From contig WRCD01000002.1 of assembly GCA_009784185.1 (NCBI GenBank), forward strand, positions 132,935 through 196,934: DNA of 64,000 nucleotides, in the 5' to 3' direction. Below are positions 7,393 through 23,427 of this stretch, one piece after another; positions within the stretch are counted from its first letter, which is position 1, and every line of letters starts with the position of its first letter. Both the position numbers and the translations under genes were made by a program. This DNA comes from Bacillota bacterium (GTDB taxonomy: Bacteria; Bacillota; Clostridia; Christensenellales; UBA1242). The notes beneath the pieces are model-generated. The model ran no database searches and was not told the origin of the DNA. It saw nothing but the letters and a program-made list of their open reading frames with translations.

Positions 7393-7407
7393 TGGCCAGC
7401 AATAATA

Positions 7408-7433
7408 AATCCCCCGTATGGGGGATTTTTGTT
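7408..7433 (+). terminator. Rho-independent terminator of first giant gene
   Basis: AAATCCCCC-GTAT-GGGGGATTTTT: GC-rich hairpin followed by a T run, 16 nt after the stop. Confidence 0.75.
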
Positions 7434-7461
7434 TGACTATTTTTGCAAATTTATGTACTAT
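7433..7461 (+). promoter_or_regulatory. Sigma-70-type promoter of the 5278-aa gene
   Basis: TTGACT (7433-7438), 17-nt spacer, TACTAT (7456-7461). About 87 nt upstream of the TTG start. Confidence 0.5.
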
Positions 7462-7548
7462 TAAAGGTGTGGTAAAATAGTGAAAGAATATAGATTTTTA
7501 AATAAAAAGACGGATAATATTTAAACTAAAGCTAAAGGGGAAAAAAGT

Positions 7549-10500
7549 TTGAAAAAGTTTGCGCTGTACATATGTTTGTGCATACTTAGTTCGGTGCTGG
7601 TGCTTGCCGGCTGCGGCAACCCGCTGGACGGGCTTTCTGTATCTGCGCAAAGCGAAAAGATTTTGATAACCGGCGGTGTAAAAACAATTGCCCTGGAAAT
7701 AAATGCAGACAACGAGAACTTAAAGTCGGCAACCATTACGGCAGACATAACCGGCGGTGCAAGACACCTGTCGCGCCTTGCCAACTTTACCAGCACTCAG
7801 CCCGATAAAGTGGCGGTAACCGATACAACAATCATTGACGGCAAGTCGGTTGCAACCATAACCGCCATTAAGCCTACTGTAGCCGAAGACAGCGTGTTTA
7901 TAAGAGTAACCAGCCGTGATTCATCCCAGATTTTAGACATAGTGCGCGTAACCGTAAAAAAGGATATTGACAACTTCTTTTTAAAAAGCGCCGGCGCGGT
8001 AGGAGTGCCGGTGGGGGAGCCAACGGTTGTTATGCCGGCATCGTATTTTGGGTTCAGTCCTATAGACACCTCCGAAACCGGCTTGTTGTATACAATAGAC
8101 GGACCAGGAGCATCTTATAGCAATCATCCAAGCAGCCAGCCTATAACTTTTTCTTCCCCAGGCGTTCATACGGCTTTTGCTACAAGCGCAGCTAAGCCCG
8201 ATATGAAAATAGTTTTGTTTACAATACGTGCCTACACTAAGCTTACAACATCAAATGTGAGCTTGTCCAGGCTGGACCAGCACCAGCCGGTTATAACCGA
8301 GCTTACATTAACCAAAAACTCCGGCGTTCAGGGTGCCAACTACGCCATTTTACAAATTAACGGCCCTGCCGGAGAAGTACTGGACATATCTGTAACAGAT
8401 TCTGCGGGTGCGTTGGGCAAAAGCCTATGGCATACAATTAATCAGGCAAACCAGACCATAGAGCTGTACGGTACCGGGATTGTATCAACAACCTTAAACA
8501 TCAGCGTTTGTGTTGCGGGAGTAATAAATCCGCAGTTTTTGCCGCTGTCATTACCTGTAAAGGTAATTGACCTGCCTGAAAGCATTGTTTTTAACAGCCC
8601 TCACGACTCACAGCCGGAGATTACGGTTTATACGGTAGCAAATTACCAGTCTTCGGGCACATTTGGTCAGCTGCTTATTCCCGTTCTTACACCAACAAAT
8701 GCCGATGACACAAGGTTTGGAATACGGGTAATAAGCGGAGATACAAGCAGTTTTGTTGTTAGGGCGGGCAATAATGCAGAGACGCCGGTAAACCTTGATA
8801 TAGTTCGGCCGTTTGATTCAAACACTAAGCTTTGGCTGGCACACACCGACCCAAAAACAGGGGAAATTGAGCTGGAGATTTATGCCTTTGCACGTGAAAA
8901 CAATCCGTATAGCAGCAGCCTGACAAGAAGGATAACCGTATTATTAAAGCATGGTGTGCAGACAATTGATGTTACCAGCGGTCTGAATTCGGCCGGAAAT
9001 ACTATTGCGCTTCAGCTTGGCGCCGGTCCGGACAGACAGATAGATTTTACTCCTGTGCCGATAAACGCCGATACCAGAGACATCCGGGTAAGCATAAACG
9101 ACCCTTCAATAGCGGATATTGTAGACAAAGAGATTACATATATAGAATCGTATATAAATACGGGGCCGCTTGCAGGCGAGCTTTATGAAGCCGGCAGGTT
9201 TTTTATCGTTCCTAAAAAAGCCGGTAAAACTTTTATCACGTTCTGGGCAAGCACGGGGCTTTCTAAACGCATTGAGATAGAGGTTGTTGCGGTGCCGGAG
9301 GCAAACGGCATAAAAATATGGCCTGCAGACGGACAGGGGAGTGTTGTTGCAGACACAATACCTAAAACGCTTGCCGAAGGCACGTTGCAGGAAATTCATG
9401 TATCAAGTTCCAGAAACATTCAGCTGCAAAACTTGTTTACGCCTTTCGACTCATCGGTAACCGGCTTTACGTTTACCAATGCGGAAACTGCCGTTGCCAG
9501 TATTTCTAACTCAAGCCCGGCTACTACCTGGATATTTTCGCGCAGTTCAGGCCGCGTGGTGGTTACGCCCACCGTGTATTTTAAAATTGTTGATGAAAAT
9601 TTTGACATAGTTTCGGACAGCCGCATCCTGCCGGATATTACCATTGTGGTATATATGCCGGTAAGCGGTATAGAAACATCTGCAAGACAAGTGCAGTTGT
9701 ATATGGATACGGGCGGAAGAAGCCCCTATACCACCGAGCTGTCGGTTGCCGAGCTTGCTGTATCTGTTTTTCCTAGCGTTGCTACAACCAAAGCTTCCAG
9801 TGCTGTATGGCATTTTAGCGGAAGTCAGAACTATGTAAGGCTGGTAGGTGCGTCAGGGGGAGTTGTTGTAGGTGACAAGGTTAAGATTGAGATTGTACCA
9901 AACGCATCCTTATCCGGTACGTATACGGCAACACTTGTTGTAACAATTAGCGACTACAACCGGGTTTTTGCGCAGGAGATTTCGGTAATTTTGCGTCATT
10001 CAACCCCGGTTTCATATGTGATGGTAGACAACTATCATATGAATGACGGAATATATTTTGAAGAGCGTCAAGGTTTATATCCGGTAAATCAGACCCATAA
10101 TTTTACTATAATTCCTACAATTGTGCCCAGCAGCGCCACAAACCAACAAATTTTTTATCTGGTTTACGATAAGGTCAATGACGTGTGGGAGCGCAAAACA
10201 GGCGCTACTTCAAGTTATATCAGATTAGTTGAGAACCAGAACGGCAGGATGGTAATTTATCCGATTTCGGCAGGCGAGAGCCAGGTTTATGTTGTTGCCG
10301 CCGACCGGCTTTTAAAAAGAGTTGAAGACGTTACCGCCACCAGTTTAACGAATGATATATTAACCAATACCGATGCCCACAGCTGGGTTAGGCTGAACAT
10401 AACAGTAAGCAACGGAAGCAAAGAAAACCCATATAGGATAAACACGGTTCAGGACTTTAAAGACATTAATAAGGCAATGGACAAACATTACGAGCTAAGA

Positions 10501-13500
10501 AAATCAATAGATATGTCGGGAGAGGCTAACTGGACTCCGATTGGAACAAACACGCAACCGTTTACCGGCACAATAAGAGGCTTCGGCAACCTTCAGCGCG
10601 TAACAGGCATCCGGATGCAAAACATATTTAGCGCTGCTGGCGGCACGCAGGACGAGTACCTGTCCCGTTACGGTATATTCAGATATCTGGGAAACTCGCT
10701 TAATTATGCAACCATAACAAACATTGAGTTTGTTATAGAACACATAGATGTTAATGTAGGCTCATCCGGTCTGTCAGAAATATATATCGGCGGGCTTGCG
10801 GGCGAAATGCGGGCCAACCTTAACAATGTTTCGGTAATAATCAAAAAGGTAACACTTAATACCACAAATGGTGGAAGCACATACGTGGGCTCTTTGTATT
10901 TCGGAGGAATTGCCGGGCTTAACCAGACTAAGGTATCAGGAGCTAATACCGGTGTAATAAACACAGACGTTGCAATTCTTTCAACCGAAATAAATACCGG
11001 GACCACTCCGGCATTTATAGGCGGAATTGCGGGCATTAATACGGGCGATATAGGAAACCCCGGTATGACAGCGGCCTTCAACACTGTAATTGGTGGTATT
11101 ACCGTAAGCGGCAATAAGGCAAGCGTTGGCGGAATTGCCGGAATTAATGGGATTGTCGGAAATAACGACTCCTCTGTACGTATTTCGGGCGCTTTAACCG
11201 ATGGAAGGCTGCAAAACACCAATGCCGGCACCGGCAGTCATGCAGGCGGAATTGCCGGGCAAAACCTTGGCTCAATAAGCTACTCGGACGCAAGTATGCG
11301 CGTTTCCGGCTTTTACAATGTAGGCGGAATAGCAGGAATGCAGTTCCACGGGCGTATGGAGTACTGCTCGTTTAAAGCATACGACGACAACAAGCGCGGC
11401 GCAGACGGTTTTTACCTTAGCGCTTCGGGCAATGTAGGCGGGCTTGTTGGGTTTATGAGCGTAGGAGTAATTAAATACAGTTACGCAATCAGTTATTTTG
11501 TAAGCCAGATAGACTTTATTCCAACCGGTTTTTGGGGCGATATTTTTCTTACAGGCAACACTGAAGTAAATGCAGGCGGCCTTGTAGGCATAACTCTTGA
11601 GAATAATACCGAAAACCATATTTTCAATAGTTTCAGCAGCCTGAATGTTGGTGTGGTGAGCGGCTTAAGCGAAATGAACATAGGCGGGCTTGTGGGGTTG
11701 TCTGATGAAGATCAGTGGCTATATATTTATGATAGTTATGCCGATTGTGTGTTTAAGCTGCCTGCGGTTCAACCTTTACTGAACGTTGGCGCAATTATTG
11801 GTAAAGCAGTTGGATTTGTCCCGACACTTAGCAATATTTATGCTGCAATTGATGGGGTTACCGACCCGGTTGGTGACGGTAGTTTTGTTAACGGCACCAA
11901 CAGCAATGTGTATATAAAAGCGCCTGTAACCGATGATATTTATGCGCCGCTATATTATCTGCTTTCAGACGAGGATATGAGAAAAAAGTCAAGCTTTGTA
12001 TGGTTTGATTTTAACAGCTTAAGGCCGGTATGGATACCTCCAACAGCCGAAACCTATCCTCAGCTGCTAACAGAGGGCGGCAATGCGCTTAAAGAGCCGG
12101 TAATAGAGCAATTTATTGTAGATGTAAAGGATTTAAAGCCGCTAAACGATAGCGGTGAGTTAAACAATGCAATTGCTGTTCCGCATCCTGCAAAAGCCCG
12201 CGTGGTTCTGGTTTACGTCAAGGATGCCAGTTTCTCTCTTGCCGACCTGATTAATTGCAAAACTATCCCTGAAGAAGCCAAAGCAAATGTCAGGGTATCC
12301 AGCAGCAACAGTAACATTGTTGCGGTGCATCAAAGCGTAAGTTTAGACAACGTCCGGTTAAATGTGCTGGCAACCGGCACGGTTGTTATAGAAGTTGTTT
12401 CAAGAGTAAATCTTAGCGTTAAATTTGAGCTAGAAATCTGCGTAATTGAAGGCTACAGCAAGTTCCAGCTGTGGGGCAGTGTTGACATGAACCCTGCAGG
12501 CGACACAATACAGAAAGACAATTATCTTAACATTAAGTACGGCAGTCAGCATACGCTTGTAGCACAATTTACAAATTCTTCTACGCGTGTTGGTGCGGGC
12601 GTGCGTGTTGCGGTAGAAGACGGAGATGAGTCCTATTTTGAGGTTATGGGCGCAAGCGGACCATTGTCCTGGACAAAAGAGGATGACAAACAGGTGGTGT
12701 ACCTGCCTGCATCCAGCCCGCTTATATTCAACACTTTAAAGGCCGAAACAGAAGGTATTGAAGTTAGTGTAACCCCGTGCGTGGTGGGTTGGTTTGATAA
12801 ACTCGGCGCGCTTGAACCTACATATGTACTTATATCGGAGCAGACAGTAGAATTTACGCTTCGAATTTGTCAGGGTGCAACAAGCCTGGCGGTTACGCCG
12901 GACTCGGCCGTGATTGAGCCGAAAGACAGCCAGACCGTTTCATTGCTGGCAAAAACAGATAAGAAAGACGATAAATTTACGTTAGAGATATGGGACGGTT
13001 CCGTCAAGCTTGAAGAAAAAGACGGCGTATATGGCGGAATACTTGGTGTAAACTGGTTTGACAAACAGTTCTTTTGCGGCAGCGAAGAGCTCCGTGCAAA
13101 CATACAGTTGTCATTAATAGATAAAAAAATAACTAAACAGGTTACATACATAATTATTGTTTCTATAGAAAGCTGGAATGGCGAATCCATAAAGAGAATG
13201 TTTGAACTGACATTTATACCTCAGAGTGTTGACAGGCTTGATATGGTACACTTTGCGGATGCCGTAACAGATGCTAACGGAGTGGTTGCAAATGAAATTC
13301 CGGGCGCGGGCTATATACCAAGCAACACTATAGTTGCAGGCGACTTTGGGCTGTTAAGGATTGATATTGCGCCATACTTTGCCGATGTTGATTATGTTGA
13401 AATTACCAGCAGTCAGGCTGCGGGTGACGTTATTTCGTTTGACCAGCGTATTATGTATATAGAAAAGGACCAGTTCCGGTACAGAATGTATCAGGAAGGT

Positions 13501-16500
13501 GTTTCCATTATACCAAACGGAATAAAAATAACCAATTTGTGGTCAAAAGATGGTTTAGATGACAAAGACAATCCGATTTTGGTGTTTGACGGTTCTATTT
13601 ATATTCGTACCGTAATTCGTTCCGCTACCTCGCTGGCATCCAGTTTTACTGTAACCGTACGTGTAGTTGGGCACGACCATGAGCGCACCGAGCAGTTGGT
13701 GCTTGCGGTAGATGCAATGCCGCAGCTTACGGTAACCTATCCGGGGTATAACCGTTTTGGCTCTGCCTACATTGCGGACGGCACCAGTATAGGCAACAAC
13801 CTTACGGTTAGCTTTGATGCCCGCGGCGGAGCTGTTAGCTTAGTTCCGGGCAGCCCAAGTATTGAAGGCGCAAAATCTGGCAGTGGAATAGAAATGACAC
13901 GGGACCCGAACAACAGCCGAATCTACGTCATTTATGTACAGGAAGGCAATATTGGCAGCAAGTTTGTGGTTGAAACTACCATAGAGCGGATTGTAAACGG
14001 ACAGCGCAGATATCATACAGTAGAAATACCGTTTACGGTAGTGGATATTGTAATTGACAGCCTTGGCGTAAAAGGCGTGTCCGGCGGTGTTTATTCCGCC
14101 GCATATGCGGGCGGTAAAAGCTACCCGATGGAAGTGTCTTTTGCAGCCAGTTCGTTAAGGTACAATTTAGATACAGATACTAACATTGATGTGCTCAACA
14201 GTATAGAGCAGCTGTTTGTTCGCATAAACGGCGGCCGTTTATCCGGCGGAACACAGTTAAACTATTGGGGATTCAGGACCGGACAGAACTCTAACGGCGA
14301 TTTCACTTACGGATTGCCGCAACACGGCGGACTTACACACGTGAGTAAAATTTCCGGAGCAGATGATATTGGGATTTACAATTACTCACCCAACGGAATA
14401 AGCAACTCGGAGAATGTCCGCTTAAGTGTTATATATGACTACAACGAAGAAGGAGAGCTTACGTTACGAGATGATTCGTTTGCGGGAGTCAGGCTTGAAG
14501 CAATGACATACTTTAACTTTAACTTTTATCAGCATACTTCTCCCGACAGTCCGATTCCTGTATATAATGTTAACGAACTGCGCGCAATGCTGCCATATCA
14601 GGATTACATTCTGTTGAACGACATAAAACTGCCAAACGAATGGCGGCCGCTGGATATAGCAATAAACAGCCTTGACGGAAACGGCTTTAATATATTGTTT
14701 GAAACAGAGGTAGGGGTGTTTAACCGCACCGACTCAAATGCCAACAACGAGCAGAACCTTGGCCTGTTTAGTGTTGTGTACGAAAACACCTTGCTTAAAA
14801 ACATTACCATGTGGCTGGAAGGAACCGACATAAGGCAAAACGCAGTTGCGCTCACAACCGTCAACTTTGGCGTAATAGCCGGAACAAACCGCGGAACAAT
14901 TACAAACTGTGCCGTAATTTCGGATGGGCTCCTCAAGGGAGATGATATATCGGGCATCACGCTTGAAGCTGCCAACCGGGCAAACGACACACACAATATA
15001 GGCGGATTGGTTGGCGTCAATTTGGGAACGATTACACATTCGCGTGTTCAGGGCATAAACATAACGGCTTACGGCAATGTGGCGGGCCTGGTAGCACAAA
15101 ACTACAGTTATATTTCGGCGTGCTATTATGCATACGGTGAAATTAAAAACACTGCCAGCAGTAACCAGACCGGTAATGTTGGTACATCCGGGCTTGTAGG
15201 CGTTAATCACAATATGGCTAAGATAATTCAGAGTTATGCCGGCAGCCGTGAGCCAACCAATGAAGCGAAGCATGCCAGTTTTATAGCTTCCAGCGTCCGT
15301 GCGGCAGGCTTTGTGTACGAAAACTTTGGAACGATTGAGGACTGCTATTCCAACATGGAAATCGAGTCCGACAGCCGCAGCAGCGGATTTGCCTTTATAA
15401 ACCGTGAGAACGGAGTAATAAACAGAAGCTTTTCAATTTCTAAGCTGCTGGAAAGCCTTAGTGCACATACGCCGTTTATCGGAACCGAAGCAGATGTGCT
15501 TAACCCGAGCAACAACTTTAACCCCACCGGCGTAAATGATTGTTTTTATCTGCTTGGCAATTTTACCGTGGCAGGAAAAAATATTGACCCTGCACGTGAA
15601 ATTTCATCTTATGAATTTACCCAACCCGATGTGTTTAGCGGGTATGGGCTGTCTCGTAATCTGGCTGGCGCTTGGCATGAGTTTTCGGGAGTATGGGTTA
15701 TTCCAAACAGTACCAATTCGTACTTCCGCATCGGCTCGTCCGTAGGAGCCGGCACGTCTTCGTATATTCAGCTTGTAGCCCCAAACATGATTGCTAATCC
15801 AAGCCGTGAGCTTAGGCTTGAGTATTCGTATATAGACCCAAGCACGGGACAGATGGTTTATCAATATTCTTCAAATTACGGACAAAGATTTGAGGTTACA
15901 GGCACCGGCACTGACAATACCCGGGCAAAAAATGACCCGTTTGGCAGACGTGTCATTGTTGATTATGACCCATGGCTTATTTATAATGCAGCCGGCTTAA
16001 ACATTGCTGCAGAAAAGGACCAGTCGGCAAATGATGGCATTATGAAAGGTGCATACAGGCTTATAAGAGATATTGACCTGAACGACTTATATCGTCCGGC
16101 CGACGGCAGTGCGGCAACGGTTCTGGAAACAACCAAATACGAGTTCTGGGGTGACTTTAACGGCAACGGTTTAAGTATAAACAACCTGGAAATAACAATA
16201 AGAGTTGGGGTTGATACAAACAGCACAGGGTTGTTTAAGTCGGTTTATACGCCGCCCCGTTATAACGATATCAGCCGCCTGAACAGGGTTGATGCACCTG
16301 TGGCAAATGTGTCTAACCTGAACATAACAGTCAGCGAAATTTTGGCCGGCAACACCACATATGTTGGTGCGCTTGCGGGCAGGGTGGAAAACAGTAACCT
16401 GATAAACATAAGCGTAAGCGGCAACAATATTGTTGTAGGGCAAAATATTGTGGGCGGTGTTGCCGGGCTTGTTACAGGAATGTCGCGCGCAATAAACATA

Positions 16501-19500
16501 AACAGCAACCTGTCGGTTAGTGCGGTATTTAGTCAGCAGGACGGTGTAACGGGCGCAAGTTTGTATGCCGACGACTTGTATAACTTTTTTGAAATATCAA
16601 CAGATGTCAAGTGGCAAAAAGGCGAGTGGCAAAAAGGCGAATGGGATGGTGAGGAATGGATAGAATGGGAAGAGGACAAGTGGAAATGGATAGAATGGGA
16701 AGAGGCCAAGTGGGTTTCTGAGAGAGTACATGCAAGTGACGAAAGGCACGCTCATAACAGGCTTAATTACGTAGGCGGAGTGTTTGGAATTGTGGACCTG
16801 GCTAAGCATTCCGGTGATGACAAAGAAAATTTGAAAGATGCAAAAAGCAGTCTGGTTAGTCATATAACCGGATTTGGGTCAAGCAAGGTAATAGGTGAAA
16901 ATGCGGGCGGTCTGTTCGGGCTGATTGGGGCTGAGACATATGCTGCAAACTTATATAAAATAGCAGGTGACGGCGGGTACATAAAAAGCCTGCAGTTTGC
17001 CGGCGGAATTGCGGCCGAAAACCGCGGAATAATTAGTTTTGCCAGCGTAACATATGAAAACGATGCCTTCACGTTAACTCAGAACGAAGTTGACAATGCC
17101 GAATGGGGAGTGATGGCGGCCGAGGGTATAGCACGCAACTACTTCCAGGGCACGCCGTTTGCGGTTGGCGGTCTGGTTGGATATAGTTACGGGCTGAAAA
17201 GCGGAACAAAAATATCCGGAATGATTGAAAAAAGCTATTCACGTGTGCACGTATACAACACCGGTGCTAATGTTGCGGGCGGTATTGTTGGTGTTATGAC
17301 AGGCGGAGACCTGAAATCCGTTTATACAACTGGCTCGGTGCGTGCCGGTCCGGTTGACCCGTCTGTGGGCGGTCTGGTTGGTGCCATATACGATTTTATT
17401 GACCTGGTAGTTAAAAAGATTATAGTAAACCCATATGAACAGATTTTAAAAGACGATTATGAGTACTTTAAAGACGGTGATCCAACACCGGTTAATGAGG
17501 AAACTTTTAAAACCTTGTCCATTATAAATTTTGCGGTTGCAATGAACAACTGGAGTTATCTGGACTTTAACTACTACAAAACAATGGCAGACGGCTTCAG
17601 CCCGAAAATCGGCGGGCTTGTTGGTGATATTTCTGATGAAAAACTGCTGCTTTCGGCTCACAATGATGCCAGCGCAACCAACTTCTTTGTAAGCGAGATA
17701 TACGCTCTGCCAACTGTTGGCGGGGTGCTTCCCGCATTAACAGCGGGGCAGACAATTGAGCTTAAGGCAATTGGTACGGCCGGTGTTGCAGACATATTAA
17801 AAGCGGCCAAGGAAATGACTCCTGCAGAGTTCATGGCTATGCAGGGCACCTCGTCTACTGCATTAACCGCAAAACAAAAAGTGTTTGGAGGCTGGGACAG
17901 GCTTACATATAATATAACCGGGCCGGAAAAGTTTCCTGTAATTGATTTAAGGGCTGCTACAAGCGAGATAGAGGTTAGAGATGAAACTGACTTGCGGCAA
18001 ATATATTGGCACATGGATAAGACTTATAGACTGACGAGAGACATTGAGCTGAAAGGCGGCTGGACACCGCTTGGAGATGTATATTATCCGTTTACCGGCA
18101 CACTGGAGTCGATGCCGCCGTCCACTGCCGGCGGAACGGGTACTGCATATACAATCAGCGGCATGACAATAGACAAGTCGTTTAGTTTCTACAACGGGCT
18201 GTTTGGCGCAACCAAAAATGCTAAAATCAGCAACATACAGCTTAAAAACGTTAAAATTTCGGCCAACTTCAATAAAAACGAAAACACATACGTTGGTGCG
18301 TTGGTCGGAAAAGCCAAAAACACCAAATTTTCAAACATATTAATTGATGCAAAAATTACAACAAACGCGGCTTTTGCGGGCGGGCTTGTTGGGCATGCGC
18401 AAAAGGGCGCTTTAAACGCAAACGGAACCGAAAAACTTTATTATATTAACAATATTATTGTTGGTGCGGACATAGAGCTTATTTCATCTGAACCCGACGG
18501 CAATGTGCGCATGGACACAACACCGGCCTCAGCGGGAGTTTTGGCAGGGTATCTTGAACTTTACAACGTTAAAGGCGTATATGCAAGCGGAAAAATTGAT
18601 GCAACCGGATTTGTATGCGGCGTTAAACTTGGCGGATTGGTTGGAGAAACTTCCGGAAGCGAGTTTAAATACACGCATACGGATGTAAACATAATTGACG
18701 ATGAGTTCGGGCTGCTGCAGAACGAAATTCCAAGTGCCGGCATCGGTGGTTTTGCAGGAGAAATAATTTCCTCACATATAACAAACTCATATGCAGGCGG
18801 CAGCATTAGTATAAACATAGTTAAACAAATGACCAACAGCAGCGAGTTTAGAGTTGGCGGCTTTGCCGGTTTCGTTAGTAGCGGCACCTTTATTGGAGAC
18901 AGCATGGCGGCAGGTAATATTACATTAGACTCTGGTTTAGCCACCGGGCTTGACGGTGGAACATATACACAGGTTGGCGGCTTTGTGGGAGAGTTTAAAA
19001 GCGACAGCAAGCTTTATGGAACCGAGGACTTCAACATTATGTACAGCATAAGCATTGTAAGTATTAGAAACTTCAGTTTGTTTGGAGTAAAAGAAAGTGC
19101 GGCCGGTAAGGTAGATGCGTTTACAAGTTCACCGTTGTCTAAAGTATCTATAGATTACGCAAGCGTGTATTATGACACCTATATGGCTCTTATCGGAACC
19201 AGTTGTCACAATGAGCTGGCCAAGGAAACCAGATTTTTTGTGGAAGACAGGTTGTCGGGCGAATTTTTAAACAGCTCCGGCAATTTTGGACAAAACGGTA
19301 TGCAATGGAGAAAGGCTAACAGCAACACAAAACAGGATTCCGAGGGCGTTAAAACGGCATATTACGTGCCTGAGGTTAAAGCTGAAACCACAGTTTTCAT
19401 GTTTGAAATCACTCCGAATGTGGAGTTCTCGCAAATTTTTACAAACAAAGTAAACGCTAATCTTGGAGCAACCACAAGCGGCCATGGCACAAAGGTTAAT

Positions 19501-22500
19501 CCTATTGGCATAAGCCCCGCCGAAAGCGGCACCACATTTGCAGGGATGATAGGCAAAGCCGATAAGCAGTACTACATCCAGACCACAAATGCCGATGAGA
19601 CTGCAATTCCGGTTGATATGCTCCAGTCTGCAAATATAAGTTTTGGCGGGTTCTTTAACGGCAACGGATACACGCTTGCTGCCAAGCCGTACGCAAGCAT
19701 TTGGGCAGGTTCCGGCCTGCAATCTGCAGGTAAGCTGGGTGTGTTTGACAGCATAGGCGGATTTGCTGACGAAAACAACATTACGTTAACCCAGAAGGCA
19801 AATGCGGCTTTTGTAACAGGCGTAACGGTAACGGGCATTGATATAGACTTCCGTTCAACCCGGGAGACGTTAAACGTTGGCGGACTTGCTAACCGTATTG
19901 GCAGGTATAGCATTGTTGCAAGCACATCGGTTGAAGGCAATATAAATGTGCTGAGCGATTACAAAGTTGCTGCCGCGGCAGCAGACTCCGCTATAAATGC
20001 CGGCGGTTTTGCGGCAGAAAACCACGGGCAGATTATAAACAGTGCATCCCGCGTAAGCATTACTGTTGGCGGCAACAGTGCTGCCAACATAGGCGGATTT
20101 GCGGGAGTTACTAAAGGCGGCAGTTTTGCAAGCTACAACGGCACGTATCACTTTGGCAGTATAACCGACAACACAACCGAAGTTTTGCCGGTAAACAAAT
20201 CTAATGCCGGCGGCTTTACCGGAAACGAGGTAGACTTTGCTGCAAGAGCATACAACTCATATGCCGTATCTGATATAAGCAAAAAAGCCGGGGCTACCGG
20301 CAGCCTTGGCAGCTTTGGCGGAGCAGCCGGCTCTGTAACGCTTCTTTCGGGCAGCAATGTAAGCTATGACAGCCGGCTTGGCAGCGGCCAAACTGATGCG
20401 GCAGGCATAACTCCGGATGTGCAGAGGAAAAATATAAGTGAAGACTCCGGCGGAGTAAGAATCAGCTGGTTTAAAGCGGATAACAGCATTAACGAGGGCT
20501 GGCCATATATCCCGGATGTGGATACAATAAACACTTCCACCGGAATAGAACCACGAGCTGCAGTAGCTACAGGCAACGGAGACCCCGACAAGCCATACCT
20601 TATAAGAAGCAGCGGTCAGTTTGAATGGATGGTAAACAACTCGGGCACAGGCAAACACTTCAGCCTTGAAACTGATGTTAATGTAGCCGGGTATGGCTTA
20701 ACCAGCCCTAACTTTAGCGGAACCTTGCTTGGCAACGGTCATACGGTAAGCGGACTGACACAGGCATTGTTTACTAATATTACCGGAAAGGTACATCAAC
20801 TGGGAATTATCAGCGAATCAAACACGTCACATTATGCGCTTGCAAGCGAAACACTAACTGCAGGGAGCAGCGTAACGGAATGTATGGTTGAGAGCGGACC
20901 GGCAGCTAAAGGATTTGTCAGGACTAACGACGGAATGATAGAAGACTGTTATATTGTTTCAGATGCAATTACTTTAATCCTTAACGGAAGCGGTCAGACA
21001 AAAAGAGTTCGCAAGGCATCTGAATTAGAATCAATCACTACATACGAAAGTCTGATAGTGAAAACCGAAGGAAAAGAGTTGCTGCCGGTGTTTGGCACTA
21101 TCTGGGGCATGATGCCGGATTCTACAGCCAACGGTTTAGAGAGTGCAATTAAGGTGCTGGCGCCTCGTCTGCTGGCTTTTGAGAAAAAGGCCTCCGATAT
21201 AGATGTGTCGGACACATTCCTGCAAGGCACCTACATTACTTCATTAGTTGTTGAAATTGCAACAAAAAAAGAGTTTGTTAAATACGCAAATTATATAAAC
21301 AAGCATGGTGCATCGGTTTTAGATGCTGTCATAAACAACGATATTAATTTTGCCGGACACCTGTTTGCGCCAATTAACCAAGACAGCAAAAACGGTGACC
21401 GAATTATTCTTAACGGCAACGGCAAGACATTGCTGAACCTGGCCGTTTTGGGCAATGAAGAAATGGGCGGTCTGTTTGGCGCAACAGCCGGTGGCCAAAC
21501 TGGCATCAGCAGCATTAAAAACCTGAACCTGGTTAACAGTGTTTCATACGGTAAAAATGCCGTTGGCTTACTGGTTGGAAATATGCGCGGTGATATTGAC
21601 TCCGTTATTGACATCGTAGAAGCCAAAAACAGTGTGGTATATGCCAGCGGAGACAAAATTGGCGGCATTGCCGGCAATGTGGAGCAAGGCGGAAAAATAA
21701 CGAGCCCAACATTGGTTAACTGCTATGTTGACGGAGGGAGTTCTGTTGGCGGCGTTGCCGGTATATTGAGCGGACTTAATACAATATCCAAACCAATTGT
21801 GCAAAACGCCAAGATAAACTACATATCAACACAGAAAGGAACCGACATACCTGATACACTTAAAGAAGTGGGCGGAATAGTTGGTGCTTCCAAACTCACA
21901 ACAAACACAATAAGCCACACAACAGGCTCATACGCGATAGTTGCAGATGCAGCTACTGTTGTATACGGATACTCGTCTGTTGGCGGAGTGGCCGGAGTTA
22001 ACGGGGGCGATATTAAGTGGCTCAGGTCTGACGCGGCAGTAAACGCCGTGTATATCAGTGGTAAAAACGGCCATGATGTTATTAAAGGATACAACAGTAA
22101 CATCGGTGGAATTGTGGGGGTCAACTCTACCCTCAGCAATATTACGGAAGTAGAGTTTAAAGGAACGGTTAATAAACCGCTGACTAATCCTCTATTCCCG
22201 CCGTTTGATATAACTACCGCAAACAATGTTGGCGGAATTGCGGGGGACAATGCAGGAAGTATTAGCTGGAGTAAAACAACAGGGGCCGAGGTGCATGGAA
22301 TCAGTAATGTTGGAGGCATTGCGGGGCTAAACTCCGGCATAGGCAACATAAACAACTGTACAAACAATGCAAATGTGTACGGAGCAAGAAACGTTGGCGG
22401 TATTGCCGGCAAGGTTGTTGCAACGGCGCCGGGGCAGTTAGGCACTCCATCGGTTTCCAAGTCGGCCAACCTGTTTGGCAAGGTTGAAGGCAGACATCTT

Positions 22501-23385
22501 TTGTGGTTTCCAGCAGGTTATTGCTATGAAACATACAATATCGGCGGATTGGTTGGGCTTTTAGAGGGTAATCTGAGCGAAAGTTATGTAAGCGGTGACG
22601 GTGTTAATGTGTCTGGCGGCTATAATGTTGGCGGTTTGGTTGGCATGGTAACCGGTGCGCGTGACCAGACCGGCACTGAGTTTGTAAACGGCAGAATCAC
22701 CTATTGCTATAGTTTACTGGGCAATACGGACAGTGTAAGTTATGGCTGCGGAGAAGATATGACAGCCAGAAACGCAGGCGCTTTTGTGGGGTATCTTGGA
22801 AGCAACTCATATATGGCCGAAGTGTTTGGTAATGCCAATATAGTTACAAGGCTCTCAAACTTTGACACTTTGCCGGGCTTTACCGAGTCTACCGGCACCT
22901 TAGACACGACAGGTACAAGAGGCTATGGTGATATAGCAACGGGATTGAACGGCGCGGTAATTGAGGGCGGCTCGCCAAGCAGCAATTATACAGCATCAGG
23001 CGCTACCGTTATAACGGTGGTACCGACAGCGGTGCCGAATGGCTTTAGCAAAACAGTGTTTAAGTGGGGTACTGGCACATTTGATATTGATGCTAATGTA
23101 TACATGGACTCAGGCGGAAATGCTGTGGCGCCTACGCCATATGTAAACTCAACAAGCTACTACTATCTTGATAGTGCAGACCATGACATTGCATCAAATG
23201 GTAGCGATGATGGGCACAGATACATTCTTGTTTCCGGCAAATATGTGCGTCTGGCGGCGGGTGAAGAGACGGAGCAAACAATATATTACCGTTCGCTTGC
23301 AGACTATCGGTCGGCATCATATGTCACAGAGAGTGCATATTGGAAACTGGCTGCAGGCAAGGTAGTTTTGGCCTGGCAATCATAA
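7549..23385 (+). CDS. Giant lipoprotein (5278 aa): Ig-like tracts plus at least 7 GLUG-type solenoid modules
   Basis: TTG start preceded by an AAAGGGGA SD. N-terminus MKKFALYICLCILSSVLVLAGC is a signal peptide plus lipobox L-A-G-C. Big_2-like Ig segments are present (e.g. RVSSSNSNIVAVHQSV...GTVVIEVVS). Seven head motifs lie near nt 10423, 14549, 15961, 17965, 19483, 20578 and 21254. G-G-x-x-G turns run throughout. Stop is TAA 23383-23385. Confidence 0.85.
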   Translation: MKKFALYICLCILSSVLVLAGCGNPLDGLSVSAQSEKILITGGVKTIALEINADNENLKSATITADITGGARHLSRLANFTSTQPDKVAVTDTTIIDGKSVATITAIKPTVAEDSVFIRVTSRDSSQILDIVRVTVKKDIDNFFLKSAGAVGVPVGEPTVVMPASYFGFSPIDTSETGLLYTIDGPGASYSNHPSSQPITFSSPGVHTAFATSAAKPDMKIVLFTIRAYTKLTTSNVSLSRLDQHQPVITELTLTKNSGVQGANYAILQINGPAGEVLDISVTDSAGALGKSLWHTINQANQTIELYGTGIVSTTLNISVCVAGVINPQFLPLSLPVKVIDLPESIVFNSPHDSQPEITVYTVANYQSSGTFGQLLIPVLTPTNADDTRFGIRVISGDTSSFVVRAGNNAETPVNLDIVRPFDSNTKLWLAHTDPKTGEIELEIYAFARENNPYSSSLTRRITVLLKHGVQTIDVTSGLNSAGNTIALQLGAGPDRQIDFTPVPINADTRDIRVSINDPSIADIVDKEITYIESYINTGPLAGELYEAGRFFIVPKKAGKTFITFWASTGLSKRIEIEVVAVPEANGIKIWPADGQGSVVADTIPKTLAEGTLQEIHVSSSRNIQLQNLFTPFDSSVTGFTFTNAETAVASISNSSPATTWIFSRSSGRVVVTPTVYFKIVDENFDIVSDSRILPDITIVVYMPVSGIETSARQVQLYMDTGGRSPYTTELSVAELAVSVFPSVATTKASSAVWHFSGSQNYVRLVGASGGVVVGDKVKIEIVPNASLSGTYTATLVVTISDYNRVFAQEISVILRHSTPVSYVMVDNYHMNDGIYFEERQGLYPVNQTHNFTIIPTIVPSSATNQQIFYLVYDKVNDVWERKTGATSSYIRLVENQNGRMVIYPISAGESQVYVVAADRLLKRVEDVTATSLTNDILTNTDAHSWVRLNITVSNGSKENPYRINTVQDFKDINKAMDKHYELRKSIDMSGEANWTPIGTNTQPFTGTIRGFGNLQRVTGIRMQNIFSAAGGTQDEYLSRYGIFRYLGNSLNYATITNIEFVIEHIDVNVGSSGLSEIYIGGLAGEMRANLNNVSVIIKKVTLNTTNGGSTYVGSLYFGGIAGLNQTKVSGANTGVINTDVAILSTEINTGTTPAFIGGIAGINTGDIGNPGMTAAFNTVIGGITVSGNKASVGGIAGINGIVGNNDSSVRISGALTDGRLQNTNAGTGSHAGGIAGQNLGSISYSDASMRVSGFYNVGGIAGMQFHGRMEYCSFKAYDDNKRGADGFYLSASGNVGGLVGFMSVGVIKYSYAISYFVSQIDFIPTGFWGDIFLTGNTEVNAGGLVGITLENNTENHIFNSFSSLNVGVVSGLSEMNIGGLVGLSDEDQWLYIYDSYADCVFKLPAVQPLLNVGAIIGKAVGFVPTLSNIYAAIDGVTDPVGDGSFVNGTNSNVYIKAPVTDDIYAPLYYLLSDEDMRKKSSFVWFDFNSLRPVWIPPTAETYPQLLTEGGNALKEPVIEQFIVDVKDLKPLNDSGELNNAIAVPHPAKARVVLVYVKDASFSLADLINCKTIPEEAKANVRVSSSNSNIVAVHQSVSLDNVRLNVLATGTVVIEVVSRVNLSVKFELEICVIEGYSKFQLWGSVDMNPAGDTIQKDNYLNIKYGSQHTLVAQFTNSSTRVGAGVRVAVEDGDESYFEVMGASGPLSWTKEDDKQVVYLPASSPLIFNTLKAETEGIEVSVTPCVVGWFDKLGALEPTYVLISEQTVEFTLRICQGATSLAVTPDSAVIEPKDSQTVSLLAKTDKKDDKFTLEIWDGSVKLEEKDGVYGGILGVNWFDKQFFCGSEELRANIQLSLIDKKITKQVTYIIIVSIESWNGESIKRMFELTFIPQSVDRLDMVHFADAVTDANGVVANEIPGAGYIPSNTIVAGDFGLLRIDIAPYFADVDYVEITSSQAAGDVISFDQRIMYIEKDQFRYRMYQEGVSIIPNGIKITNLWSKDGLDDKDNPILVFDGSIYIRTVIRSATSLASSFTVTVRVVGHDHERTEQLVLAVDAMPQLTVTYPGYNRFGSAYIADGTSIGNNLTVSFDARGGAVSLVPGSPSIEGAKSGSGIEMTRDPNNSRIYVIYVQEGNIGSKFVVETTIERIVNGQRRYHTVEIPFTVVDIVIDSLGVKGVSGGVYSAAYAGGKSYPMEVSFAASSLRYNLDTDTNIDVLNSIEQLFVRINGGRLSGGTQLNYWGFRTGQNSNGDFTYGLPQHGGLTHVSKISGADDIGIYNYSPNGISNSENVRLSVIYDYNEEGELTLRDDSFAGVRLEAMTYFNFNFYQHTSPDSPIPVYNVNELRAMLPYQDYILLNDIKLPNEWRPLDIAINSLDGNGFNILFETEVGVFNRTDSNANNEQNLGLFSVVYENTLLKNITMWLEGTDIRQNAVALTTVNFGVIAGTNRGTITNCAVISDGLLKGDDISGITLEAANRANDTHNIGGLVGVNLGTITHSRVQGINITAYGNVAGLVAQNYSYISACYYAYGEIKNTASSNQTGNVGTSGLVGVNHNMAKIIQSYAGSREPTNEAKHASFIASSVRAAGFVYENFGTIEDCYSNMEIESDSRSSGFAFINRENGVINRSFSISKLLESLSAHTPFIGTEADVLNPSNNFNPTGVNDCFYLLGNFTVAGKNIDPAREISSYEFTQPDVFSGYGLSRNLAGAWHEFSGVWVIPNSTNSYFRIGSSVGAGTSSYIQLVAPNMIANPSRELRLEYSYIDPSTGQMVYQYSSNYGQRFEVTGTGTDNTRAKNDPFGRRVIVDYDPWLIYNAAGLNIAAEKDQSANDGIMKGAYRLIRDIDLNDLYRPADGSAATVLETTKYEFWGDFNGNGLSINNLEITIRVGVDTNSTGLFKSVYTPPRYNDISRLNRVDAPVANVSNLNITVSEILAGNTTYVGALAGRVENSNLINISVSGNNIVVGQNIVGGVAGLVTGMSRAININSNLSVSAVFSQQDGVTGASLYADDLYNFFEISTDVKWQKGEWQKGEWDGEEWIEWEEDKWKWIEWEEAKWVSERVHASDERHAHNRLNYVGGVFGIVDLAKHSGDDKENLKDAKSSLVSHITGFGSSKVIGENAGGLFGLIGAETYAANLYKIAGDGGYIKSLQFAGGIAAENRGIISFASVTYENDAFTLTQNEVDNAEWGVMAAEGIARNYFQGTPFAVGGLVGYSYGLKSGTKISGMIEKSYSRVHVYNTGANVAGGIVGVMTGGDLKSVYTTGSVRAGPVDPSVGGLVGAIYDFIDLVVKKIIVNPYEQILKDDYEYFKDGDPTPVNEETFKTLSIINFAVAMNNWSYLDFNYYKTMADGFSPKIGGLVGDISDEKLLLSAHNDASATNFFVSEIYALPTVGGVLPALTAGQTIELKAIGTAGVADILKAAKEMTPAEFMAMQGTSSTALTAKQKVFGGWDRLTYNITGPEKFPVIDLRAATSEIEVRDETDLRQIYWHMDKTYRLTRDIELKGGWTPLGDVYYPFTGTLESMPPSTAGGTGTAYTISGMTIDKSFSFYNGLFGATKNAKISNIQLKNVKISANFNKNENTYVGALVGKAKNTKFSNILIDAKITTNAAFAGGLVGHAQKGALNANGTEKLYYINNIIVGADIELISSEPDGNVRMDTTPASAGVLAGYLELYNVKGVYASGKIDATGFVCGVKLGGLVGETSGSEFKYTHTDVNIIDDEFGLLQNEIPSAGIGGFAGEIISSHITNSYAGGSISINIVKQMTNSSEFRVGGFAGFVSSGTFIGDSMAAGNITLDSGLATGLDGGTYTQVGGFVGEFKSDSKLYGTEDFNIMYSISIVSIRNFSLFGVKESAAGKVDAFTSSPLSKVSIDYASVYYDTYMALIGTSCHNELAKETRFFVEDRLSGEFLNSSGNFGQNGMQWRKANSNTKQDSEGVKTAYYVPEVKAETTVFMFEITPNVEFSQIFTNKVNANLGATTSGHGTKVNPIGISPAESGTTFAGMIGKADKQYYIQTTNADETAIPVDMLQSANISFGGFFNGNGYTLAAKPYASIWAGSGLQSAGKLGVFDSIGGFADENNITLTQKANAAFVTGVTVTGIDIDFRSTRETLNVGGLANRIGRYSIVASTSVEGNINVLSDYKVAAAAADSAINAGGFAAENHGQIINSASRVSITVGGNSAANIGGFAGVTKGGSFASYNGTYHFGSITDNTTEVLPVNKSNAGGFTGNEVDFAARAYNSYAVSDISKKAGATGSLGSFGGAAGSVTLLSGSNVSYDSRLGSGQTDAAGITPDVQRKNISEDSGGVRISWFKADNSINEGWPYIPDVDTINTSTGIEPRAAVATGNGDPDKPYLIRSSGQFEWMVNNSGTGKHFSLETDVNVAGYGLTSPNFSGTLLGNGHTVSGLTQALFTNITGKVHQLGIISESNTSHYALASETLTAGSSVTECMVESGPAAKGFVRTNDGMIEDCYIVSDAITLILNGSGQTKRVRKASELESITTYESLIVKTEGKELLPVFGTIWGMMPDSTANGLESAIKVLAPRLLAFEKKASDIDVSDTFLQGTYITSLVVEIATKKEFVKYANYINKHGASVLDAVINNDINFAGHLFAPINQDSKNGDRIILNGNGKTLLNLAVLGNEEMGGLFGATAGGQTGISSIKNLNLVNSVSYGKNAVGLLVGNMRGDIDSVIDIVEAKNSVVYASGDKIGGIAGNVEQGGKITSPTLVNCYVDGGSSVGGVAGILSGLNTISKPIVQNAKINYISTQKGTDIPDTLKEVGGIVGASKLTTNTISHTTGSYAIVADAATVVYGYSSVGGVAGVNGGDIKWLRSDAAVNAVYISGKNGHDVIKGYNSNIGGIVGVNSTLSNITEVEFKGTVNKPLTNPLFPPFDITTANNVGGIAGDNAGSISWSKTTGAEVHGISNVGGIAGLNSGIGNINNCTNNANVYGARNVGGIAGKVVATAPGQLGTPSVSKSANLFGKVEGRHLLWFPAGYCYETYNIGGLVGLLEGNLSESYVSGDGVNVSGGYNVGGLVGMVTGARDQTGTEFVNGRITYCYSLLGNTDSVSYGCGEDMTARNAGAFVGYLGSNSYMAEVFGNANIVTRLSNFDTLPGFTESTGTLDTTGTRGYGDIATGLNGAVIEGGSPSSNYTASGATVITVVPTAVPNGFSKTVFKWGTGTFDIDANVYMDSGGNAVAPTPYVNSTSYYYLDSADHDIASNGSDDGHRYILVSGKYVRLAAGEETEQTIYYRSLADYRSASYVTESAYWKLAAGKVVLAWQS
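16611..16714 (+). repeat. Intragenic tandem repeats encoding a Trp/Glu-rich insert
   Basis: GTGGCAAAAAGGCGA occurs twice (16611-16640). A 30-nt unit AATGGATAGAATGGGAAGAGG.CAAGTGG. occurs twice (16655-16714, 28/30 identical). Together they encode KWQKGEWQKGEWDGEEWIEWEEDKWKWIEWEEAKW. Confidence 0.9.
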
Positions 23386-23394
23386 AAACCATTA

Positions 23395-23427
23395 AAGAGC
23401 GGCATATTAACATATGCGCTCTTTTGC
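23395..23427 (+). terminator. Rho-independent terminator of the 5278-aa gene
   Basis: AAGAGCGGCATAT-TAA-CATATGCGCTCTTTT: long hairpin plus T run, 10 nt after the stop. Confidence 0.7.

Follow-up and report, generated by a model that had tools for sequence, protein, structure and literature searches.

Contig WRCD01000002.1 of a Bacillota bacterium (GenBank assembly GCA_009784185.1; GTDB lineage Bacteria; Bacillota; Clostridia; Christensenellales; UBA1242) carries a 15.8-kb gene that encodes a protein of 5278 amino acids (aa) with a predicted lipoprotein signal, two predicted tracts of immunoglobulin (Ig)-like domains, and seven predicted beta-helix modules of the GLUG type. The gene was analyzed in a window of 64,000 nucleotides (nt) of this contig (positions 132,935 to 196,934, forward strand), whose own numbering is used below unless another record is named, and a giant paralog lies upstream of it. 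This conserved giant pair, present in nearly every sampled member of one small-genome (~1 Mb) family of gut Clostridia, probably forms a long fiber for attachment or surface coating. That the fiber is lipid anchored and used in attachment or interaction is the reading we prefer, with a probability of about 0.6.

In the mechanism that we propose, the 563-kDa protein would be exported by the Sec pathway, lipidated on Cys22 by Lgt, and cleaved by LspA, so that its N-terminus stays anchored on the external side of the cytoplasmic membrane. The first ~8 Ig-like domains would serve as a stalk through and beyond the peptidoglycan. Beyond it would come seven non-catalytic, GLUG-type right-handed beta-helix modules, with a second Ig stalk of ~7 domains between modules 1 and 2, and the whole array may amount to a ~100-nm fiber with a variable distal end. 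Together with the upstream paralog, and perhaps with a 971-aa protein encoded downstream, it could make up a surface structure that attaches to a host, partner cell, or particle, or a protective coat.

A single open frame with an N-terminal lipoprotein signal

The gene is one uninterrupted frame (7549 to 23385, + strand, 5278 codons, TTG start; C2:140483-156319), as a preliminary description of this DNA had stated, and some 5278 sense codons without a stop exclude a chance origin. The predicted 563-kDa product has a high content of G, S, V, T, and N. The gene and its upstream paralog share an identical ribosome-binding site (AAAGGGG) and identical opening codons (TTG AAA AAG TTT). The public gene call, P0002 (5263 aa), takes GTG codon 16 as its start and thereby loses the n-region of the signal peptide (window 7549 to 7596); it is 15 codons short, because alignment with the ortholog P0011 puts an ATG start opposite our TTG. 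The TTG start thus corrects a public call that hides the signal peptide.

The N-terminus, (M)KKFALYICLCILSSVLVLAGC, matches exactly the signal peptide and lipobox given in the preliminary description: two Lys are followed by 18 uncharged residues, and the Cys of the lipobox L-A-G-C is residue 22, in keeping with the pattern [LVI][ASTVI][GAS]-C and a Cys ~15 to 35 residues from the start. P0011 likewise begins with MKKFALYICLCFMSAILIFSGC, opening MKKFALYICLCF...FSGC. The lipobox Cys is invariant in an alignment of nine proteins that are 23 to 28% identical, and a strict lipobox lies within the first 40 residues of 35 of 39 proteins (the 5278-aa protein, its upstream paralog, and 37 database proteins). 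Of the remaining four, two come close to it (GAGC, FCGC), one is truncated at the N-terminus, and the last, P0010, lies outside the family. The only segment of the 5278-aa protein with a mean Kyte-Doolittle hydropathy above 1.6 (19-aa window) is the N-terminal one, and the remaining protein must therefore be extracytoplasmic.

The genome encodes the enzymes that such a signal would call for, Lgt (PF01790, 201 bits, C3:106859-107563) and signal peptidase II (LspA; PF01252, 103 bits, C5:93574-93975), and its ordinary small lipoproteins carry a signal of the same kind. It also encodes two penicillin-binding proteins (PBPs), and the organism therefore has a wall. An LPXTG-type motif (LPxT[GAS]) with a C-terminal hydrophobic segment was not found across the 5278 aa, nor was an SLH domain (PF00395); the 94%-complete genome had no match to sortase (PF04203) and no SLH domain either. 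A sortase- or SLH-anchored protein was rejected on these grounds, both motifs and genes being absent. Since there is no sortase, no SLH domain, and no other hydrophobic segment, the N-terminal lipid anchor is the only recognizable retention route, and surface display in this genome seems to rely on lipid and transmembrane anchors. By every sequence-level criterion the protein would count as a bacterial lipoprotein. Its lipobox had been taken to imply an N-terminus tethered to the membrane and a remainder projecting outward; the sequence rules (invariant Cys, Lgt and LspA, single hydrophobic segment) support that picture, in which Cys22 would be lipidated and the chain would extend through the wall.

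Ig-like tracts alternating with predicted beta-helix modules

AlphaFold2 was run on two 1200-aa windows of the protein (aa 23 to 1222 and aa 1561 to 2760) with 14-row homolog alignments. In the first model (overall predicted local distance difference test [pLDDT] score, 72.6), aa 23 to 957 form ~8 all-beta domains of 100 to 120 aa, mostly at pLDDT 75 to 88, which Foldseek matched to nuclear-pore GP210, DSCAM, GhpA, and the S-layer arrays of SbsB, SbsC, EA1, and Sap (E, 1e-24 to 1e-13). In the second (pLDDT 68), aa ~1580 to 2330 form ~7 beta-sandwich domains of ~100 aa, matched to protocadherins, the PrgB Ig-like domains, SbsB, and Sap. Over both tracts, matches to Ig-like arrays had E values of 1e-24 to 1e-9 at a probability of 1.00. 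The two Ig-like regions that had been read from the letters at ~7.6 to 10.4 kb and ~12.1 to 14.5 kb are thus borne out by structure prediction. The sequence family Big_2 (PF02368) stayed below its cut-off in this protein (best, 14.8 bits, E 0.029, aa ~1573 to 1621, versus a cut-off of 22.8), and precomputed PF02368 matches are present on several homologs.

The beta-helix modules were located with a hidden Markov model (HMM) of the module head built from homologs alone, the 5278-aa protein being excluded. It found exactly seven heads in register, at aa 959, 2334, 2806, 3472, 3997, 4348, and 4568 (nt 10423, 14548, 15964, 17962, ~19.5 kb, 20590, and 21250), each within a few codons of the seven heads of the preliminary description (10423, 14549, 15961, 17965, 19483, 20578, and 21254). 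Four are strong (66 to 96 bits), and three are weak but in register (6 to 15 bits; i-E, 2e-3 to 2e-6). In profile-profile comparison, modules 1 to 6 proved mutually homologous (94 to 99.8%) and module 7 related to modules 1 to 4 via its repeat body, while the negative controls (the Ig tracts and the last 200 aa) gave ~0%; the last ~200 aa matched nothing in this comparison. A Trp-containing cap closes each module (e.g., VWIPPTAETYPQLL) and likewise the C-terminus itself. The Pfam family Glug (PF07581; cut-off, 20.5 bits) scored above its cut-off in modules 1, 2, 4, and 7 (24.4, 26.9, 37.0, and 39.5 bits) and below it in module 3 (13.3 bits), and it had no match in modules 5 and 6.

Within module 2, the AlphaFold2 model of aa 2336 to 2690 has regular strands of 3 to 4 residues with a period of ~17 to 19 residues at pLDDT 85 to 95; as modeled, this strand pattern is that of a parallel beta-helix. 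The top 50 Foldseek matches listed for this model were Ig arrays only. The invariant residues of this module are mostly G, N, I, F, and Y, at positions typical of a structural repeat. An NCBIfam search of the protein had no match, and neither phmmer nor the module-2 profile matched any PDB sequence. Self-BLAST returned only the identity match, and phmmer with 250-aa chunks detected few, weak internal repeats; judged by sequence, the modules are old and diverged, and detectable by profile methods.

Module 3 holds two perfect or near-perfect tandem DNA duplications (units of 15 nt and 30 nt; window 16610 to 16713), which encode a Trp/Glu-rich insert, WQKGEWQKGEWDGEEWIEWEEDKWKWIEWEEAKW (aa ~3021 to 3056), in one of its loops. 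The insert is present neither in the closest ortholog nor in any other aligned homolog and is therefore a recent, lineage-specific in-frame expansion. These two tiny duplications were the only tandem repeats that Tandem Repeats Finder detected, and long internal DNA repeats were not found in the gene. Because such repeats are absent and the modules are too diverged for self-BLAST, repeat-driven misassembly is unlikely; it was rejected together with recent repeat expansion.

A family-specific pair of giant proteins

The preliminary description had named a gene normally split among its relatives as one outcome that would overturn it, and a comparison of lengths found the opposite: all 37 recovered homologs are giant (3.2 to 7.8 thousand aa [kaa]), collinear, and not split. 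The closest, P0011 (5381 aa; on a 218-kb contig of a different ENA assembly record), aligns over its full length in a single BLASTP high-scoring segment pair at 39% identity, and several homolog clusters recur, full length, in as many as 7 independent assemblies. Where a homolog has a source name at all, the name is "hypothetical protein" or is taken from an unrelated C-terminal repeat, and we found no description of this giant protein family in the literature searched.

The genome itself measures 1.16 Mb in 19 contigs, with an estimated completeness of 94% and contamination of 0.4%. To map the family's distribution, genomes were searched with the module-2 profile. In 20 of the 24 other genera of the same family (genomes of 0.8 to 1.3 Mb), matches lay inside stop-free frames of 2.7 to 8.3 kaa; there were usually two, on one contig and strand, 14 to 25 kb apart. 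Among other families of the same order, 1 of 16 had a match, a weak one. In a class-wide sample (300 genomes, 178 genera), matches with E below 1e-30 were confined to the same family, where six of six further members had exactly two copies, and ~290 genomes of other Clostridia families yielded no copy. Altogether, 26 of 30 other genomes of the family had two copies. A phmmer search with the family-specific segment aa 1880 to 2330 recovered 6 proteins from 1.84 billion representatives.

The upstream paralog is collinear with the 5278-aa protein over aa 1 to 3238. A maximum-likelihood tree built on module 2 places the upstream copies of different genera in other clades than the downstream ones ({G014a, G023a, G003a, G012a}, support 99/96, versus {G003b, G014b, G012b, G023b}; {G008a, G020a} versus {G008b, G020b}), and the tandem duplication is therefore old, with both copies retained. 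The 5278-aa protein groups with P0011 and G004y, and its upstream neighbor with G004x. Conservation along the protein is highest at aa 1900 to 2000, across module 2, and over parts of module 3, and it drops toward the C-terminal, distal end, where homologs vary in length and module number. In one relative (L015; GCA_964579205.1, CAZOFH010000002.1, 49975 to 84596), no other giant gene lies within 10 kb to either side of the one for the 4873-aa protein P0017, whose neighbors encode a trypsin-like protease, glycyl-tRNA synthetase, and other housekeeping functions. The pair is therefore not always adjacent.

Giant genes are not limited to this pair. The genome has seven open reading frames (ORFs) of at least 2000 aa (6451, 5286, 5066, 4203, 2659, 2468, and 2174 aa, stop to stop), on C1, C2, and C10, which occupy ~85 kb, or 7.3% of 1.16 Mb. 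One more of these ORFs (C1:125043, 2171 aa) also opens with a lipobox signal (LLAAC).

A proposed lipid-anchored fiber and the alternatives to it

A lipid tether, Ig stalks, helix modules, a variable end, and nothing catalytic together argue for the design of a fiber-forming adhesin or surface fibril. If extended, ~15 Ig-like domains of ~4 nm each and ~100 or more helix turns of 0.48 nm would give, from the modeled architecture, a fiber with a length on the order of 100 nm. Such a fiber may act in adhesion or as a coat, and the two paralogs may cooperate in it. Several points weigh against this interpretation. No ligand-binding domain or motif was identified in the 5278-aa protein, and the word adhesin is applied by analogy. 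The modeled modules are module 2 and part of module 1, at a moderate pLDDT (68 to 73) from 14-row alignments, and solved beta-helices, including the N-terminal domain of IgA1 protease, are not among the listed Foldseek matches, which Ig arrays dominate. To our knowledge, the export and folding of a lipoprotein of 5.3 kaa is also without precedent. A bolder version of the fiber, which we regard as rather unlikely, makes the two giant lipoproteins subunits of one heteromeric lipid-anchored fiber, possibly on the 971-aa protein as its base; it would be the defining organelle of this ~1-Mb-genome Clostridia family and serve as an obligate means of attaching to a host, a protist, or a partner cell, with the well-conserved modules 2 and 3 as the chain interface and the variable distal modules setting partner specificity. 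The bacteria would then live as episymbionts, as has been proposed for others that combine a reduced genome with giant surface proteins.

There is some, though a minor, chance that the two giant lipoproteins and the other giants of the genome instead form a dense S-layer- or glycocalyx-like layer that replaces SLH- and sortase-based envelopes and protects the cell with no need of a ligand. The S-layer Ig-like arrays of SbsB, SbsC, Sap, and EA1 in the Foldseek lists, the lack of SLH domains and sortase in the genome, the 7.3% of the genome taken by ORFs of at least 2000 aa, and the near-universal presence of the pair in the family all fit such a coat. However, the S-layer matches are generic Ig-array ones with low TM-scores (0.1 to 0.2), and known S-layer proteins measure 40 to 200 kDa and self-assemble in two dimensions, whereas a linear array of 5 kaa whose distal end varies is more fiber-like and no lattice-forming domain was recognized in it. 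It is improbable that the protein is no lipoprotein at all, its Sec signal being cut by signal peptidase I, with release to the wall or medium, or staying uncleaved as a signal-anchor. The public call from GTG codon 16, which lacks the n-region, and the plain transmembrane anchor of the downstream 971-aa protein would accord with this idea, but the TTG start has a ribosome-binding site and matches the ortholog's ATG, Lgt and LspA are encoded, and the motif [LVIFM][ASGT][GA] plus Cys is kept among proteins only 23 to 30% identical, which is hard to explain unless it is used.

That the helix modules or the C-terminal 200 aa are catalytic (an M26-like protease, polysaccharide lyase, or hydrolase) or a contact-dependent toxin, with the Ig arrays for display, strikes us as very improbable. 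A weak Peptidase_M26_N match (27.2 bits) hints at an enzyme, as does the presence of lyases and hydrolases among right-handed beta-helices, and the C-terminal ends vary among homologs as they do in polymorphic toxins. Yet what M26_N covers in IgA1 protease is the beta-helix, which is not catalytic (PMC7695701), HExxH occurs nowhere in the 5278 aa, no Pfam or NCBIfam enzyme or toxin domain was found in the protein, the invariant residues of module 2 are mostly structural-repeat ones, and no immunity-like small gene lies 3' of the gene. An assembly or annotation artifact, whether several genes joined into a chimera or a pseudogene in decay but still open, is hardly credible: although the genome is a 19-contig, metagenome-type assembly, the gene is collinear from end to end with the independently assembled ortholog P0011, all 37 homologs are giant, relatives have stop-free frames of 2.7 to 8.3 kaa, the gene holds no large internal repeats to mislead an assembler, and its GC content is that of the genome. 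A horizontally acquired island was considered as well and rejected; the GC content of the gene region (0.45 to 0.47) equals the genome value, genes for housekeeping and sporulation flank the locus, and the family as a whole keeps the pair.

Cost to the genome is a further consideration. The gene pair takes up 2.7% of a 1.16-Mb genome, and almost every genus of the family keeps it while the sequences drift to 25 to 30% identity; keeping so costly a pair when the genome is reduced argues that it is central to how these uncultured gut bacteria cling to their surroundings or shield themselves from them. If the interpretation is true, it would extend the size range of Gram-positive lipoproteins ~10-fold and make lipid anchoring a display route for fiber-sized proteins where sortase and SLH domains are absent. 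The family-specific pair is also a lineage marker and a target for cryo-electron tomography and metaproteomics.

Gene neighborhood and coordinates

The features of the locus are collected in Table 1. The promoter-like site between the terminator-like hairpin of the upstream gene and the TTG start suggests, as a consensus match, that the 5278-aa gene has its own transcription start. The 971-aa GLUG protein encoded downstream could be a membrane base or partner of the two giant lipoproteins; spoVT follows 3' of its gene, and then a gene for a SpoVB/MurJ-like flippase. The leader of the upstream paralog (L001 5150 to 5250, C2:125150-125250) contains a GC-rich palindromic element (…CGCCGCTTACAGCGGCGG…CCCCTTCGGAAAAGGGGAATTC…) that looks like a hairpin repeat of the GGGGAATT family. 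A 5056-aa ORF call from an ATG 39 codons upstream of the paralog's TTG arises because the ATG-started frame crosses this element.

Table 1. Coordinates of the 5278-aa gene, its parts, and neighboring features in the 64,000-nt window
Feature	Window positions	Strand	Basis
Upstream paralog, 3' part (full gene 5017 aa, C2:125273-140326, lipobox FSAC)	1..7392	+	Homology; separate clade in tree
Terminator-like hairpin closing the upstream giant gene	7407..7428	+	9-bp stem (5 GC pairs), then T-rich tail
Promoter-like site TTGACT-17-TACTAT for the 5278-aa gene	7433..7461	+	Consensus match only
Ribosome-binding site AAAGGGG and TTG start codon (7549)	7534..7551	+	AAAGGGG 8 nt 5' of start
Predicted lipoprotein signal peptide, aa 1-22, lipobox LAGC, Cys22	7549..7614	+	Sequence rules, homolog alignment
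Ig-like tract 1, aa 23-957, ~8 beta-sandwich domains	7615..10419	+	AlphaFold2 model md0bee5eb1cc6, Foldseek
Beta-helix (GLUG) module 1, aa 959-~1511	10423..12081	+	Head HMM 93 bits; Glug PF07581 24.4 bits; hhalign to modules 2-4 99.5-99.8%
Linker and Ig-like tract 2, aa ~1512-2333, ~7 beta-sandwich domains, including conserved domain ~aa 1900-2000	12082..14547	+	AlphaFold2 model m486ad98c5228, Foldseek, conservation profile
Beta-helix module 2, aa 2334-2804, where conservation in the family is strongest	14548..15960	+	Head HMM 82 bits; Glug 26.9 bits; 46 invariant columns
Beta-helix module 3, aa 2805-3471, with Trp/Glu-rich insert specific to this protein (nt 16610-16713)	15961..17961	+	Head HMM 66 bits; hhalign; Tandem Repeats Finder
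Beta-helix module 4, aa 3472-3984	17962..19500	+	Head HMM 96 bits; Glug 37.0 bits; Peptidase_M26_N 20-27 bits
Beta-helix module 5, aa 3985-4343, divergent	19501..20577	+	Head HMM 5.8 bits, in register; hhalign to module 1 96.5%, module 2 98.2%
Short module 6, aa 4344-4567, divergent, without GLUG motif	20578..21249	+	Head HMM 11.7 bits; hhalign to modules 1-5 94.5-97%
Module 7 and C-terminal region, aa 4568-5278, stop codon	21250..23385	+	Head HMM 15.2 bits; Glug 39.5 bits in 5 stretches
Hairpin then TTTT, 3' of stop codon, likely terminator	23394..23427	+	By-eye reading; unlisted in hairpin scan
Third GLUG protein, 971 aa, N-terminal transmembrane signal-anchor MVLKRFLIFLVVILVGLSIGLTTYY, no lipobox; module heads at aa 119 and 483	23612..26527	+	Head HMM, signal reading

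Comparison with known systems

The modules most resemble the N-terminal region of the streptococcal IgA1 protease/Zmp proteins (Peptidase M26; PF05342, GLUG PF07581), with which they share the GLUG type and the same type of head (P-Y-x-I-x-T ... D-I-D-L ... W-x-P-I-G ... F-x-G-x-f-d-G-N-G). The 5278-aa protein and these proteases are alike in being surface proteins of Gram-positive bacteria and of very large size, and module 4 has a near-threshold match to Peptidase_M26_N (PF05342; 27.2 bits, under the cut-off of 27.7, over profile positions 203 to 247 only). In streptococcal IgA1 protease the GLUG-type beta-helix is a non-catalytic N-terminal part (cryo-electron microscopy structure described in PMC7695701). 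Unlike these proteases, the 5278-aa protein has no M26 catalytic domain, seven helix modules rather than one, Ig-like arrays in place of G5 domains, and a lipobox in place of an LPXTG-type anchor. An M26 protease was rejected as an identity for it, M26_N being sub-threshold and neither HExxH nor a Pfam M26_C match being found.

A second likeness is to the giant Ig-repeat adhesins (Salmonella SiiE, the RTX adhesins LapA and MpIBP, Staphylococcus Ebh, the enterococcal PrgB stalk, and the Aureispira grappling-hook protein GhpA), which span multiple thousands of residues and use Ig arrays as extenders for distal interaction modules; the PrgB Ig-like domains and GhpA appear in our Foldseek lists. 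No sequence homology to any of the six was detected. They are held by type I secretion system retention, the type IX secretion system, LPXTG motifs, or C-terminal transmembrane anchors, whereas the anchor here would be an N-terminal lipid, and in none of them do Ig arrays alternate with GLUG helices.

Small-genome Firmicutes without sortase, such as the Mollicutes, display proteins at their surface in large part through lipid anchors. The 5278-aa protein has the same signal type, lipobox, and processing genes as monoderm lipoproteins (Lgt/LspA; review, PMC5817068) and the large surface lipoproteins of Mollicutes. It differs from typical Gram-positive lipoproteins, which are solute-binding proteins or enzymes of 20 to 60 kDa located under the wall, in being ~10 times larger and having to cross that wall, and its host differs from Mollicutes in encoding PBPs and therefore possessing a wall. 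The preliminary description had called the architecture unusual for a Gram-positive lipoprotein, which holds for size and anchor type but not for the building blocks, since many surface proteins of Firmicutes contain Ig-like spacers and GLUG helices, and most members of the family share the architecture. The parts, then, are familiar; the protein stands out by its predicted N-terminal lipid anchor, by Ig stalks that alternate with seven GLUG helices, and by its conservation within a gene pair specific to one reduced-genome family of Clostridia.

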